Source: a phage. Taken from it: a stretch of 64,000 bases of DNA. Shown here one piece after another: positions 1,867 to 37,104 of this stretch (positions are counted from its first letter, which is position 1; each line of letters opens with the position of its first letter). The notes under the pieces were generated by a model. It was not told the origin of the DNA, searched no databases, and was given only the letters and a program-made list of their open reading frames with translations. The position numbers and the translations under genes are program-made. Location: sequence record PZ386974.1; one strand, 5' to 3'.

Positions 1867-3849
1867 ATGACACTTCTCTCTCCGGGCGTTGAGCTCAAAG
1901 AAACTACCGTACAGAGTACTGTAGTTAATAACTCCACTGGTACTGCTGCCCTGGCTGGAAAATTCCAATGGGGACCTGCATTCCAGATTAAACAAATCAC
2001 TGATGAAGTTGCATTGGTTGATATGTTTGGTACTCCTAATACGGATACAGCAGATTATTTCATGTCTGCTATGAACTTCCTTCAATATGGTAATGACCTT
2101 CGTGTTGTACGCGCAGTTGACCGTGATACTGCTAAGAACTCATCTCCTGTAGCAGGCAATATTGAATTCACAATCTCTGCTGCTGGTAGTAACTATGCAG
2201 TTGGTGATAAAATTATCGTTAAGTATTTGACCGAAACTGTTGAAGCAGATGGTTATGTCACTTCAGTTGATGTCGATGGTAAAATTCTTAACATTTATAT
2301 CCCAACCGGTAAAATTATTGCTCGTGCAAAAGAAATTAATGAATATCCGGCATTGGGTTCTAACTGGACCGCCGAAGTTGCCAGTTCTTCTTCTGGTCTC
2401 TCTGGCGTTATTACAATTGGTTCTATCGTAACCGATTCGGGTATTCTGTTAACTGAAGTTGAAACTTCTGAAGAAGCTATTACTTCTCTAACTTTCCAAG
2501 AATCTATTAAAAAATATGGTGTCCCAGGCGTAGTTGCTCTTTATCCTGGTGAACTTGGCGACCAGCTCGAAATTGAAATCGTATCTAAAGCAGACTATGA
2601 CAAAGGTGCTTCAGCCCAGTTAAAAATTTATCCTGATGGTGGTACTCGTGCATCTACTGCTAAAGCAATCTTTGGGTATGGCCCACAAACTGATGACCAA
2701 TATGCAATTATCGTTCGTCGTAACGATGCTGTAGTTCAGAGCGTAGTTCTTTCTACTAAACGTGGTGAACGCGATATTTATGGTAGTAATATCTTTATTG
2801 ATGATTTCTTTGCTAAAGGCGCAAGCAATTATATTTTCGCTACTGCACAAGGTTGGCCAAAAGGTTTCTCTGGCGTAATCAAACTGGGTGGTGGCTTATC
2901 ATCTAATGAAACGGTTGACGCTGGTGATTTAATGGAAGCTTGGGATTTGTTTGCTGACCGTGAATCTGTTAATGCGCAGTTGTTTATTGCCGGTTCTTGT
3001 GCAGGTGAATCTTTAGAAGTTGCTTCTACAGTTCAGAAACATGTTGTAGCAATTGGTGATTCTCGCCAAGATTGCTTGGTTCTTTGCTCACCACCACGTG
3101 CAACTATAGTCGGTATTCCTGTTAATCGTGCAGTTGATAATCTGGTTGATTGGCGTACTGCAACAGGAACTTACACCGATAATAACTTTAATGTAAGTTC
3201 TACTTATGCTGCTATTGACGGTAACTATAAATATCAATATGACAAATATAATGATGTGAATCGTTGGGTTCCATTAGCCGCTGATATCGCTGGTCTTTGT
3301 GCTCGTACAGACAATATTTCTCAGCCTTGGATGTCTCCTGCCGGTTATAACCGTGGACAAATTCTTAACGTTATTAAGCTTGCAATTGAAACTCGCCAAG
3401 CGCAGCGTGATCGTTTGTATCAGGAAGCTATTAACCCTGTCACTGGTACCGGTGGTGATGGGTATGTTCTGTACGGTGATAAAACTGCCACTTCTGTTCC
3501 TTCACCATTTGACCGTATTAACGTTCGTCGTTTGTTCAATATGGTTAAAACGAACATTGGTTCAGCATCTAAATATCGCCTGTTTGAATTGAACAACGCA
3601 TTTACCCGTTCTTCTTTCCGTACAGAGACTTCTCAATATCTACAGGGTATTAAAGCTCTCGGTGGTGTATATAACTTTAAAGTTGTTTGTGATACTACCA
3701 ATAACACCCCAGCAGTTATCGACCGTAATGAATTTGTAGCTACTTTCTACTTACAACCTGCCCGCTCGATAAATTATATTACGTTGAACTTTGTAGCAAC
3801 AGCAACTGGTGCCGATTTCGACGAACTAATTGGTGCTGTAGGTGGTTAA
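1867..3849 (+). CDS. 18: tail sheath protein gp18
   Basis: 660-aa ORF; N-terminus MTLLSPGVELKETTVQ and length match T4 gp18. Confidence 0.95.
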   Translation: MTLLSPGVELKETTVQSTVVNNSTGTAALAGKFQWGPAFQIKQITDEVALVDMFGTPNTDTADYFMSAMNFLQYGNDLRVVRAVDRDTAKNSSPVAGNIEFTISAAGSNYAVGDKIIVKYLTETVEADGYVTSVDVDGKILNIYIPTGKIIARAKEINEYPALGSNWTAEVASSSSGLSGVITIGSIVTDSGILLTEVETSEEAITSLTFQESIKKYGVPGVVALYPGELGDQLEIEIVSKADYDKGASAQLKIYPDGGTRASTAKAIFGYGPQTDDQYAIIVRRNDAVVQSVVLSTKRGERDIYGSNIFIDDFFAKGASNYIFATAQGWPKGFSGVIKLGGGLSSNETVDAGDLMEAWDLFADRESVNAQLFIAGSCAGESLEVASTVQKHVVAIGDSRQDCLVLCSPPRATIVGIPVNRAVDNLVDWRTATGTYTDNNFNVSSTYAAIDGNYKYQYDKYNDVNRWVPLAADIAGLCARTDNISQPWMSPAGYNRGQILNVIKLAIETRQAQRDRLYQEAINPVTGTGGDGYVLYGDKTATSVPSPFDRINVRRLFNMVKTNIGSASKYRLFELNNAFTRSSFRTETSQYLQGIKALGGVYNFKVVCDTTNNTPAVIDRNEFVATFYLQPARSINYITLNFVATATGADFDELIGAVGG

Positions 3850-33866: not shown

Positions 33867-33908
33867 TTTGTTCTCCAGGTTGTTTTATTGATTAGGTGGT
33901 ACAAGTCT

Positions 33909-33937
33909 ATAGTAACACATCCTACAGGAGAGTAAAC
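33909..33937 (-). promoter_or_regulatory. T4 early-type promoter (GTTTAC-N17-TACTAT)
   Basis: minus-strand GTTTACT, 17-nt spacer, TACTAT, upstream of ORF 33498-33866. Confidence 0.45.
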
Positions 33938-33973
33938 ATCTTTTTAAACTTTTTCTGCCCTAAACGCACAAAA

Positions 33974-33989
33974 GGGAGCCGAAGCTCCC
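33974..33989 (-). terminator. terminator hairpin GGGAGC-ttcg-GCTCCC + TTTTGTG
   Basis: directly after stop of the 59-aa ORF on minus strand. Confidence 0.55.
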
Positions 33990-33994
33990 TAAAA

Positions 33995-34174
33995 TTATGC
34001 AACAACCTTTCCAAAACGAGAAGCATCATCTCGAAGAACTGCACGTGCTCTGCGCATGATCTTCTCAACTGTTTGATTAATACGAGAGTTCGACCCACGC
34101 TTGTATCCAGCGCGTTTAGAGGTACCATCAACTTTCTTTTCAACTGCTTTCTTTGCTTTAGCTTGTTTTGCCAT
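33995..34174 (-). CDS. small highly basic protein (30.9-like), below ORF-track size cutoff
   Basis: 59-aa ORF MAKQAKAKKAVEKK... hand-translated; T4-like codon usage; terminator downstream. Confidence 0.55.
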   Translation of the reverse strand: MAKQAKAKKAVEKKVDGTSKRAGYKRGSNSRINQTVEKIMRRARAVLRDDASRFGKVVA

Positions 34175-34469
34175 TATAAATTCTCTTTAAATGAAAATGC
34201 AGGACTTATTGACATTGCCTGCGCAAGTCCTCAAGGGGAACATAGGTTTTGGATATTTAACGACAGGATAACCATAAACCCGTCATCATACCACCCACGA
34301 CTTAGACAGATAACCTTTTTCTGACGCGTGATAGTATAAAATACATTCAAGAGGTACACCGTAAAACTGCCGGGGTCTTAAAACTATAATGATTCGCAAA
34401 TCATTAATCAGACAGTTCGACGGCTCCTCGATTTTCTAGCCGCACTTAAGGTAGCGAATCACCTAAAAC

Positions 34470-34718
34470 TTATTTAAGGGTGATAACAAAATGACGTACT
34501 GCTTTACGAGCTGCAGAAGCCAAAGGCTTAGCGTATTTCAGTTCATCTTTTGCTTCCAGTTCAGAAGCCAAAGCTGCCTGTACCGGGTTCAGATGTTTGA
34601 AATATCGCAGGATTTCAAGAGCTTCGGCTTCAACATCAATAGATGCGCCATAGTTTTCGTGGCCGTTATTCCATGCGTTTCGTTGCAGTTCAAGAGCGTG
34701 TTGTAATTGTTTAATCAT
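34470..34718 (-). CDS. rIII: rIII lysis-inhibition accessory protein
   Basis: 82 aa; MIKQLQHALELQRNAWNNGHENYGASIDVEAEALEILRYFKHLNP matches T4 RIII. Confidence 0.93.
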   Translation of the reverse strand: MIKQLQHALELQRNAWNNGHENYGASIDVEAEALEILRYFKHLNPVQAALASELEAKDELKYAKPLASAARKAVRHFVITLK

Positions 34719-34842: not shown

Positions 34843-35175
34843 TCACTTATAAAGACACGGAATAGCTTTATAGTGGCATGTTACGAATTTCTGTTTAATT
34901 TCTTTAGGATGTTTAAGTCCCAAAGCCACAAATGGATGTGGAACATTTCGAATTTGTCCAACTGGTAGTGGAGTCAAATCACCGACTTCAACAAAACCTT
35001 CAGGAACATCAGGACCTACAGAATGAACTACACATAGTTCAGGAACTTCACCTTGAACACGTTTACCAATCACAAGTCCTGATTCGGTAACTTCTTCATC
35101 ACCTGCTTGAGCGGGTTCAGAAACCAGAATGACATATTCACCAACAGCACGAATTGGGAGTTGTACTTCAGACAT
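34843..35175 (-). CDS. 31: head assembly co-chaperonin gp31 (GroES analog)
   Basis: 110 aa; [21 protein letters not shown]... matches T4 gp31. Confidence 0.95.
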
Positions 35176-35541: not shown

Positions 35542-36112
35542 AAAAGTTTCGGATTTGTTCCCAATTCAGAGAACGAAGATTATTACGAGAGTACTGAATT
35601 ACTTCAATACCGGCTTGTTTTAGAATTTCGGCCCAATTTTCAGGAGATCTGTCATATAATTCCGCGTATACAACCTTTTTAATACCTGACTGCGTAATAG
35701 CTTTAGTGCAATCAGGACACGGAGAAAGCGTAGTATATAACGTAGCACCTTCAATAGAATTACCTTTACGAGCTGCAAACAAAATTGCGTTCAGTTCCGC
35801 ATGGATTTCGTTATTAGCAGACCATGCACTATGAGCGGCCCGATGTTCTTTAGCCAAAACAAAATTATCCACCCGTCCAAATGCTGTAGTGCCTTCTTTA
35901 TGCCCAGCAACGATGACCGGGCTTGGTTTATTCTTCAACCAACCGTTTTCGGATGCATGTTCGCAACAGTTTGTACCACCTGAAGGAGAGCCATTATAAC
36001 CTGTAGAAATAATGCGTCCATCCTTTTCAATGACGGCACCAACTTTCCATGAACAACATTTTGATTCTTGAGAAATCAGATATGCAATCTGAAGGTATGT
36101 GCTAGCTTTCAT
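35531..36112 (-). CDS. cd: dCMP deaminase
   Basis: 193 aa; zinc-binding CDA motifs (HAE..., PCPDC); T4 Cd length. Confidence 0.93.
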   Translation of the reverse strand: MKASTYLQIAYLISQESKCCSWKVGAVIEKDGRIISTGYNGSPSGGTNCCEHASENGWLKNKPSPVIVAGHKEGTTAFGRVDNFVLAKEHRAAHSAWSANNEIHAELNAILFAARKGNSIEGATLYTTLSPCPDCTKAITQSGIKKVVYAELYDRSPENWAEILKQAGIEVIQYSRNNLRSLNWEQIRNFCGE

Positions 36113-37104
36113 TATTGAACCTTATTAATATAAGTTAACAGCTCTTTAGTTTGTTCCCAACTGATGCACGCATCGGTAACGGAAACGCCATAGGACATAT
36201 TATCAGAAATTTTTTGATTTCCTTCATGTAGGAATGATTCTATCATAATTCCTTTGACCAAATCATTAGCTGCTAAATTTTTACCAATACCAATTTGATT
36301 GCTATAATGCCCATCAGCGTTTGCATGGCTACAGTCAACCATTACATAATGATTCAGACCTACTGCCCTTGCTTTGTTAGAAGCTTCTTGAATATCAGAA
36401 GAATGATAGTTCGGGCCGTTGGTCCCACCACGCAATACGATATGCGTATTCTGATTACCTTCAGCTTCAACAATGCCTACAGTACCATCGACGTCCATAC
36501 CCATATACCGATGAGGCCAGGCGGCACTATACATCGCGTCTGTAGCTACTTTAATAGAACCATTGGTTGCGTTCTTGAAGCCTACGCACATCGGTAGACC
36601 TGAAGCAATTTCACGATGTGTCTGACTTTCAGTCGTACGGGCGCCAATAGCAACCCATGAGAAAATACCAGAAAGATACTTAATCGTGAATGGGTCTAAT
36701 ACTTCAGTTGCTAATGGAAGTCCCATACGTAGAAGTTTACGACACAATGTTCGTGCAACTATAAGACCGTGGTTCATATCAAAACTTCCGTCAAGATATG
36801 GATCATTTACAAGACCTTTCCAACCTACGGTAGTTCGAGGCTTTTCAAAATAAACGCGCATCACTAACAGAACATTAGGAAGACGAGTTTGAAGTTCGGC
36901 CAGACGTTTGCCGTATTCAACAGCAGCAATAGGGTCATGAATTGAACAAGGACCTACAACAATAAGTTTGCGTGGGTCTTCACCGTTCATAATCGAATTA
37001 ACTTGTTCGCGATGAGAAGCCACTTGTGATGCGTAAGCTTCCGACAAAGGAATAATCTCAGCCAGTTCTTTTGGAGAAATAAGTTTTCCGACGACAGGTA
37101 ACAT
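36112..37104 (-). CDS. class I 3-deoxy-D-arabino-heptulosonate-7-phosphate (DAHP) synthase
   Basis: 330 aa; full-length similarity by recall to E. coli AroG/AroF/AroH incl. VVGPCSIHD, KPRTTVGWKGL, IGARTTESQ, DCSHAN, ESFLHEGNQ, TDACISW; stop overlaps cd start (TAATG). Confidence 0.9.
   Translation of the reverse strand: MLPVVGKLISPKELAEIIPLSEAYASQVASHREQVNSIMNGEDPRKLIVVGPCSIHDPIAAVEYGKRLAELQTRLPNVLLVMRVYFEKPRTTVGWKGLVNDPYLDGSFDMNHGLIVARTLCRKLLRMGLPLATEVLDPFTIKYLSGIFSWVAIGARTTESQTHREIASGLPMCVGFKNATNGSIKVATDAMYSAAWPHRYMGMDVDGTVGIVEAEGNQNTHIVLRGGTNGPNYHSSDIQEASNKARAVGLNHYVMVDCSHANADGHYSNQIGIGKNLAANDLVKGIMIESFLHEGNQKISDNMSYGVSVTDACISWEQTKELLTYINKVQ

Follow-up and report, generated by a model that had tools for sequence, protein, structure and literature searches.

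The spacer between the genes rIII and 30.9 of T4-like phages is, on comparative evidence, a modular structured non-coding RNA locus and not the scar of a gene or a block of promoters, and it is probably an unannotated anti-defence RNA locus. We analysed this spacer in a 64,000-nucleotide stretch of phage DNA (sequence record PZ386974.1; referred to below as the window), whose source genome is a Mosigvirus (T-even; best matches 99% identical). The gap spans 295 nt (34175–34469), and its RNA modules, all on the minus (gene-sense) strand, follow each other in the order W-B-C-Y-Z. On balance we favour the reading that the spacer is a structured non-coding RNA locus transcribed with rIII, in which at least one module is a counter-defence RNA. 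Its most likely function would be to supply antitoxin mimic and decoy RNAs that neutralise type III toxin–antitoxin (TA) abortive infection.

Module W (34430–34464, minus strand; 35 nt, AGGUGAUUCGCUACCUUAAGUGCGGCUAGAAAAUC) is the rIII-proximal part of the gap, and it is near certain, from plasmid matches and pseudoknot pairs, that it is a single ToxI-type unit (a pseudo-ToxI). This antitoxin-like unit was overlooked in the first-pass annotation of the gap. Searched by BLAST, W matches tandem toxI repeats on 74 plasmids with 86–90% identity, at several tandem places in most records, and these matches sit directly upstream of genes annotated as 'type III toxin-antitoxin system ToxN/AbiQ family toxin'. 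The plasmids include pECA1039 (Pectobacterium) and the Escherichia coli plasmids pU90-1 and pTA141-2. For example, on pECA1039 W matches 5.5 toxI repeats (AGGTGATTTGCTACCTTTAAGTGCAGCTAGAAATTC), which are followed by a terminator and then by the ToxN gene; the layout on pU90-1 and pTA141-2 is the same, and two toxI alleles are represented there. When 5,426 complete E. coli genomes were searched, W was the only part of the gap that matched anything, and toxI arrays were found in 54 of the genomes.

The pseudoknot of W was examined by aligning toxI repeats with W variants from nine phage lineages. The two helices (positions 2–4 with 13–15, and 9–11 with 23–25) are paired in 96.4% of the cells of this alignment, with compensatory changes on both sides at three of the six pairs; the structure score of 0.37 is reached by none of 500 shuffles, and slid controls give at most 0.10. 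W of the window carries the compensatory pair U9C and A25G together with a UU loop, as does the pseudo-ToxI of phage PhiTE (Blower et al. 2012, PMC3475682). W has also kept C27 and U28, and a mutation at either one alone abolishes ToxN inhibition (PMC3475682). AAAU motifs lie on both sides of W (the 5' one is formed by the last rIII codons, AAA UAA), and ToxN cuts at AA^AU. By sequence and predicted structure, then, W has every feature needed to act as the PhiTE look-alikes do, and an anti-ToxN function is moderately likely.

Compared with ToxI of the ToxIN systems (pECA1039 and the E. coli plasmids), W has the same unit size (35–36 nt, ∼85–90% identity), both pseudoknot helices, C27/U28 and the A-rich flanks of AA^AU type. 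It differs in having UU for UUU in the second loop, an additional A at the 3' end and a 5' tail unlike that of ToxI, and in being an orphan of one or ∼1.3 units in a phage transcript, whereas ToxI is a 3–5.5-fold tandem array with a terminator and toxN. There is no tandem array in the gap: after the single unit comes AAAUCGAGGAG, similar to no more than the beginning of a second repeat, and no toxN-type gene is among the annotated flanking genes of the window. W is therefore better described as an orphan mimic than as a TA locus. The mimic of PhiTE is likewise a phage non-coding RNA with U9C/A25G and a shortened UU loop. However, PhiTE is an rV5-like and not a T4-like phage, its mimic has lost C27/U28 whereas W has kept them, and W is unrepeated and embedded in a conserved multi-module RNA locus. 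The mechanism proposed here for W, neutralisation of ToxN during infection, has been demonstrated for PhiTE.

Close relatives differ in whether they have W (it is missing from RB69 and several others); such gain and loss is the pattern seen for accessory anti-defence elements and argues for a counter-defence role. Single unannotated ToxI-like units of the window type are found in 112 phage records and those of the Pectobacterium type in 200, the latter including 163 Klebsiella T4-like phages and phages of other families. Where we checked the position (L026, L036 and phage Marfa), the unit lies in the rIII–30.9 spacer. Single or double unannotated ToxI-like units also occur in phages of sizes other than T4-like (∼76–111 kb), for example in Vibrio phages JSF10/JSF12, Salmonella phage 7-11, Escherichia phage StefiGeyer_Bas88 and Klebsiella phage pzk-kv7.

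Module Y (34239–34292, minus strand) is an H-type pseudoknot, identified by covariation and by a covariance model. Its P1 stem pairs GACGGG (34279–34284) with CCUGUC (34262–34267), its pseudoknot helix pairs the loop strand UUUAUGG (34272–34278) with CCUAUG (34241–34246), and an A-rich linker (GUUAAAUAUCCAAAA, 34247–34261) separates the two 3' strands. The consensus order is P1, a loop UU, the second strand UAUGG, UUAU, an invariant A-rich linker (GUUAAAUA..CAAAA) and the partner strand; a semi-conserved UAUGAUG stands ahead of Y. This is the sole module common to all 42 rIII–30.9 spacers examined. Among 33 distinct sequences 80% of the cells are paired (64% in shuffles), and the covariation score is 0.44, against 0.18 for shuffles (0 of 500 reach it) and 0.09–0.17 for slid controls; two-sided changes are seen at four pairs in P1 and at five in the pseudoknot helix. 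A covariance model (R1) built from the Y sequences has one match only on the window (66.1 bits, E 3.8e-11), and detects copies of 42–57 bits in metagenomic sequences outside its training set.

No Rfam family matches Y. When 185,579 genomes of bacteria and archaea were scanned with a pattern for Y, 34 matches came up, none with a fully complementary P1 stem. One of the 34, on a Bacilli metagenome-assembled genome (MAG) contig (L129, 4567–4622, plus strand), also scores weakly with the Y model (35 bits, E 2e-4) and is the only sequence of the bacterial collection with a plausible Y-like match; L129 may represent a prophage, or else phage DNA that was binned into the MAG. Three other interpretations of Y and its flank were rejected: a mini-ORF (open reading frame) starting at AUGAUG ahead of Y, whose frame is not conserved, since P1 measures 6 nt in some sequences and 7 nt in others; a preQ1-I riboswitch, for which there is no Rfam match and which would not fit the absence of Y from bacteria; and pairing of the 5' flank with the linker of Y, which is inconsistent across sequences.

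In unrelated phage contigs, outside the T-even group, Y is found within arrays of tRNA genes. In L062 (6797–6851, minus strand) it fills a 58-nt slot between tRNA-Asp and tRNA-Pro; in L083 and L139 (in the latter at 2492–2547, plus strand) it begins 6 nt past tRNA-Met; in L142 (431–486, minus strand) it comes after tRNA-Lys and directly adjoins what looks by eye like the 5' end of a tRNA (ARAGORN does not call it); and in L185 (2543–2597, minus strand) it lies just upstream of tRNA-Met. The distance to the tRNAs varies (6–21 nt past the upstream tRNA and 0–7 nt ahead of the downstream one). Y was also found upstream of a gp32-like gene (L057) and within long ORF-free regions (L050 and L054). 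These contexts indicate that Y is an autonomous RNA module and not a leader tied to 30.9, and its placement in tRNA arrays suggests that it is released there by tRNA processing. A tRNA scan of the window itself found none. Among the Y-bearing contigs we also observed long ORF-free, hairpin-rich stretches of 0.8–1.7 kb that include or adjoin a Y copy (L050 2500–3280, L054 2456–3300 and L083 570–2286), a partial tRNA-like match in L054 (2466–2519), and group I introns above the Rfam gathering threshold (L050 5245–5476 and L062 3462–3704).

The build of Y is that of a type III antitoxin: its two stems are coaxial, the first loop is short, and a long loop is rich in A. The closest parallel is CptI of the CptIN system (PDB 4RMO, PMC4627078), whose unit we recovered for this comparison from a primer given in PMC4627078. 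CptI and Y are similar in size (∼44–45 nt) and share the order stem 1a, short loop, stem 2a, 3–4 nt, stem 1b, a long A-rich loop containing AAAU, and stem 2b. Y differs from CptI in having no sequence homology with it, no tandem repeats and no adjacent toxin. Homologues of Y as tandem repeats beside a CptN-family toxin were found neither in the scan of 185,579 genomes nor in plasmids or E. coli genomes.

The 295-nt gap sequence occurs in 776 phage records, T4, T2 and T6 among them, and the rIII–30.9 spacer is 120–416 nt long in the 42 junctions we could delimit. Alignment with T4 turned up a homologous gap (NC_000866, 130541–130784) in which three blocks exceed the identity of the flanking genes: block B is 98%, block Y 96% and block Z 95% identical to T4, compared with 87% for rIII and 86% for 30.9. 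The first block (W) is only 58% identical, and block C is missing in T4. Because non-coding blocks are better conserved than the genes on both sides, the gap does not look like a scar. Alignment of close and distant relatives shows recurring units whose order differs by lineage; besides W-B-C-Y-Z of the window phage there are Y-W-X-Z, X-Y-Z, Z1-Y-hairpin and more. The three modules tested for a second copy elsewhere in the window (Y, Z1 and C) have none. G–U pairs and UNCG and GNRA tetraloops fit the folding of the gene-sense RNA only. Against Rfam 15 the window had no match at the gathering score and none at E ≤ 10 in 34150–34490, and a scan of 11 related loci gave nothing relevant.

Two unusual arrangements of the locus were observed among the relatives. 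In L044 and L045 (1432–1623) only the C-terminal half of rIII is left, with a Y-Z block upstream, which indicates rearrangement at the locus. In L030 (1889–2533; Yersinia phage TG1 type) the 30.9 frame keeps its N-terminal ∼20 codons and then runs into an unrelated 214-aa ORF; 30.9 has thus been replaced while the RNA modules Z1-Y-W were kept.

The first-pass annotation had noted several inverted repeats in the gap, and all of them are present where it placed them: TAATGATT/AATCATTA (34387–34406), AGGACTT/AAGTCCT (34201–34207 and 34225–34231) and GCAGG/CCTGC (34199–34203 and 34218–34222). Taken alone, these short repeats are not beyond chance. It is the comparative evidence (the 776 records, the identity of blocks to T4 and the covariation) that makes the region non-random, and the suggestion of a small structured RNA is borne out by the chain of conserved, covarying RNA modules on the minus strand, with covarying base pairs across relatives in both W and Y.

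The first of the repeats is the apical UNCG hairpin (UAAUGAUU-UGCG-AAUCAUUA) of module B, a long irregular hairpin (34342–34434, minus strand) whose helices appear in the minimum free energy (MFE) fold: an outer helix UCGAGGAG/CCUCUUGA and an inner helix CCGUCGAACUGUC/GGCAGUUUUACGG. Its opening bases are the AAAUCGAGGAG that follows W. In the divergent relative L021 module B has four pair-preserving changes and UACG in place of UGCG (UAUCGAUU-UACG-AAUCGGUA, UUGUC/GACAA). Module C (34289–34341, minus strand) is a variable block, absent in T4, with a small hairpin (CAGA-AAAAGGUUA-UCUG, 34307–34323) in which CAGA/UCUG covaries to CAGC/GCUG.

Module Z consists of two hairpins on the minus strand. 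Z1 (34224–34241) is an 18-mer, GU(A/U)CCC-loop-GGG(G/A)CUUG, conserved in all clades, and its position in relatives varies: behind Y, ahead of Y or apart from it. Z2 (34199–34222) is the hairpin GCAGG...CCUGC, whose stem is replaced wholesale between clades (for example by GGGAGC/GCUCCC, GAACUGG/CCAGUUC or GAGAGGU/ACCUCUC). In the clade of the window an alternative pairing of AGGACUU (34225–34231) with AAGUCCU (34201–34207) is possible. Of these two alternatives only the GCAGG/CCTGC-type hairpin has an equivalent in distant relatives; the AGGACTT/AAGTCCT pairing exists only in the T-even clade. A further possible hairpin in the MFE fold (AUUUUC-AUUUAAA-GAGAAU, 34180–34198, minus strand) may cover the Shine–Dalgarno sequence of 30.9. 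The idea that the gap is a regulatory leader possibly applies to these last ∼20 nt, but not to the remainder.

At the position of C some relatives carry another module, X. This is an unannotated RNA of ∼135–140 nt, absent from the window, which occurs in the rIII–30.9 spacer of many relatives and in 403 phage records with 94–100% identity (e.g. L028 1751–1890, L007, L024, L036, and phage Marfa, NC_048798, ∼129292–129426). Six helices make up the proposed fold, a 6-bp kissing loop and a GNRA hairpin among them; 97.9% of its cells are paired, compensatory changes occur at 13 of 32 pairs, and none of 500 shuffles does as well. X has no Rfam match. The T4 stable RNAs rnaC and rnaD were considered as candidates for X or Y and show no resemblance by eye.

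The coordinates of the gap and its gene context, as first given, agree with the ORF list and with the annotation of near-identical Mosigvirus records. The genes around the gap are all on the minus strand, in the order gp31 (34843–35175), rIII (34470–34718), the gap, the 30.9 homologue (33995–34174; 59 aa, very basic) and an intrinsic terminator (GGGAGC-UUCG-GCUCCC followed by UUUU, 33969–33989, minus strand; a terminator is annotated there in ATK47 and G53). The stop codon of rIII directly adjoins the non-coding region, 30.9 is the last gene ahead of the strong terminator, and the terminator closes a transcription unit made of rIII, the non-coding RNA and 30.9. The 30.9 protein has no Pfam or PDB match and falls in a PHROG of unknown function. 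Further along, a 330-aa DAHP (3-deoxy-7-phosphoheptulonate) synthase gene, AroG-like (36112–37104, minus strand; so annotated in ATK47), lies beside the dCMP deaminase gene; it is an auxiliary metabolic gene, and T4 has none at that position.

That the gap holds no ORF above ∼26 codons is correct for ATG starts only. With GTG or TTG starts there are a 42-aa ORF (GTG, 34231–34359, minus strand), a 37-aa ORF (TTG, 34286–34399, minus strand) and a 142-aa ORF (GTG, 33896–34324, plus strand) antisense to 30.9, none of which is conserved; T4 lacks a 53-nt block lying inside both minus-strand ORFs. The gap contains no match to promoters, as had been reported: a scan with promoter and terminator consensus sequences returned zero sites inside 34175–34469, and checking the T4 early, middle and late promoter consensus by hand revealed no conserved site. 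The TTGACA hexamer is present (34211–34216) but is not conserved, being TTGGCA in many relatives including T4 and T6. Another promoter candidate, TTTTAC-17-TATTTT, was dismissed, as it is lost in T4. The distant relative L040 carries a promoter/terminator cassette (T4 early-promoter stem-loop type) after rIII.

These observations can be assembled into a tentative mechanism. Early, middle and late promoters have been reported for rIII (PMC9409239); together with the sense position of the spacer directly 3' of rIII, in a unit that ends at the terminator, this suggests that the spacer RNA would be made throughout infection. According to the published model of ToxIN, ToxN is freed when labile ToxI is no longer replenished (PMC5772629), and PhiTE escapes ToxIN by expressing ToxI look-alikes (PMC3475682). 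In a ToxIN host, infection by the window phage would shut off host transcription, labile ToxI would decay, and the ToxN ribonuclease would be freed. The phage transcript would then supply W as a ToxI look-alike, which ToxN would bind and possibly trim at the flanking AA^AU sites, so that the toxin would be kept inhibited and infection would proceed. Y could serve as a further stable decoy or ligand RNA for an RNA-binding enzyme, which other phages would release from tRNA precursor transcripts; B, C, Z1 and Z2 would be accessory structured modules, and the last hairpin could gate the translation of 30.9.

Several observations weigh against this reading. W is an orphan without a toxN partner, and in PhiTE 1.5 repeats were insufficient and expansion was needed, although that mimic had the disabling C27G/U28A. 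T2, T4 and T6 carry a diverged W with an A4/G13 mismatch, i.e. one broken pair; W of the T4 type matches no plasmid and so has no cognate toxI there, and these three phages are strongly restricted by E. coli toxIN (PMC9391042). RB69 is the least toxIN-restricted of T2, T4, T6 and RB69 (PMC9391042), yet it lacks W, which rules out W as the source of its relative resistance. The proven ToxN inhibitor of these T-even phages is the protein TifA (PMC9391042). TifA (T4 gp61.4) resembles W in its proposed role as a T-even counter-defence against ToxN, but it is a protein and is encoded at another locus; its existence implies that ToxIN is a system T-even phages encounter, and equally that the main inhibitor need not be W. 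The restriction of T2, T4 and T6, and the lack of W in RB69, mean that W is not the main determinant in those phages. As for Y, B, C and Z, none has a bacterial antitoxin counterpart in plasmids or E. coli genomes, and their putative functions, including the decoy role, are proposed from architecture and context. Finally, the folding energy of the region is unremarkable, with a single-sequence z-score of −1.2 on either strand.

A broader version of the same idea, which we regard as possible but doubtful, is that the whole spacer is an RNA anti-defence island, in which cassettes of autonomous folded RNAs are swapped like accessory genes and each neutralises a different host defence that targets RNA. 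W would then be the ToxI mimic, X a third RNA (∼135 nt, with the kissing loop), and Y either a decoy of a new class or a novel small ribozyme akin to pistol, which is processed from tRNA arrays elsewhere.

The likeliest of the alternatives is an ordinary cis-acting untranslated region (UTR), in which the hairpins stabilise the 3' end of the rIII mRNA, act in processing or attenuation, or control translation of 30.9, and the likeness of W to ToxI is a functionless recombination fossil. The region does lie between two co-oriented genes and may end in a hairpin over the Shine–Dalgarno sequence, hairpins of the Z2 type with U-rich tracts look like terminators in some relatives, and W is diverged in T4, which is toxIN-sensitive. 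However, the order of modules shifts relative to both genes, so that neither the rIII stop nor the 30.9 start anchors them; other phages carry Y in tRNA arrays or upstream of the gp32-like gene, with neither rIII nor 30.9 close by; the gap has no promoter or terminator consensus; and W variants preserve the pseudoknot by compensatory change, with C27/U28 intact in the window, which is unlike a fossil. We therefore consider a plain UTR unlikely. Much less credible still is a pseudogene, the scar of a lost gene or mobile element such as the homing endonuclease suggested in the first-pass annotation, or a hidden small protein gene. Short hypothetical ORFs are annotated in the gap in some records, and the block is length-polymorphic (120–416 nt among relatives), but the ORFs are not conserved, T4 deletes 53 nt from inside them, substitutions are compensatory in stems and not synonymous, constraint is stronger than in the neighbouring genes, and no relative examined has an intact gene at this position. 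A DNA-level element (a promoter cluster, replication origin or recombination hotspot) is about as improbable: one record annotates an 'ori type 2 repeat' at the gap and the mosaic structure implies frequent recombination, while the gap has no promoter-like site, its TTGACA is not conserved, and its G–U pairs, like its UNCG and GNRA loops, speak for folding at the level of the sense-strand RNA.

It is also improbable, if slightly less so than these last two, that Y, by itself or together with Z1, is a small, pistol-related ribozyme whose self-cleavage cuts the rIII–30.9 transcript, and tRNA precursors elsewhere. Y shares with the pistol ribozyme env25 (Rfam RF02679) the P1 hairpin, a loop that starts with UU and forms a pseudoknot of 5–7 bp with a strand beyond P1, and the linker GUUAAAUA after P1 (PMC6101554); pistol ribozymes are phage-associated (PMC4604425), as Y is. 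Small ribozymes beside phage tRNAs are established in the form of the theta ribozymes (a minimal HDV-like kind; HDV, hepatitis delta virus), pseudoknotted RNAs of ∼50 nt (PMC10879173), and Y abuts tRNA ends in L062, L142, L139 and L185. Yet the pistol covariance model is silent on Y even at E ≤ 10; P2, P3 and the conserved catalytic triplet G40-C41-G42 are not consistently present, there is no G–U cleavage junction, and Y contains an additional loop of 4 nt without a counterpart in pistol. P2 and P3 would find no space in L062 and L142, where the pseudoknot passes directly into the following tRNA. The HDV-like topology fails as well, as Y has no P3/L3 (only 4 nt stand at that place) and no catalytic-C junction (J4/2). 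A structured RNA locus with a counter-defence role thus remains our preferred reading of the spacer.

In the literature that could be searched we came upon no mention of ToxI-like units in T4-like phages or of the Y and X motifs, and W, Y and X are annotated in no genome record among those listed. RNA antitoxin mimicry has so far been demonstrated in one phage, PhiTE. What is new here is an intact-looking ToxI unit that this Mosigvirus and its close relatives carry at a fixed locus without annotation, with related units in well over a hundred other phage genomes, including the 163 Klebsiella T4-like phages, which are used in therapy research. The locus of T4 itself holds a diverged ToxI-like unit and a universally conserved pseudoknot that no database describes, and since T4 is the best-studied phage, the locus is directly testable with existing toxIN strains and T4 genetics. 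Our results suggest that the 'intergenic' DNA of phages and the gaps in their tRNA arrays hold a hidden RNA-based layer of counter-defence; if so, this layer would affect host-range prediction and phage engineering.

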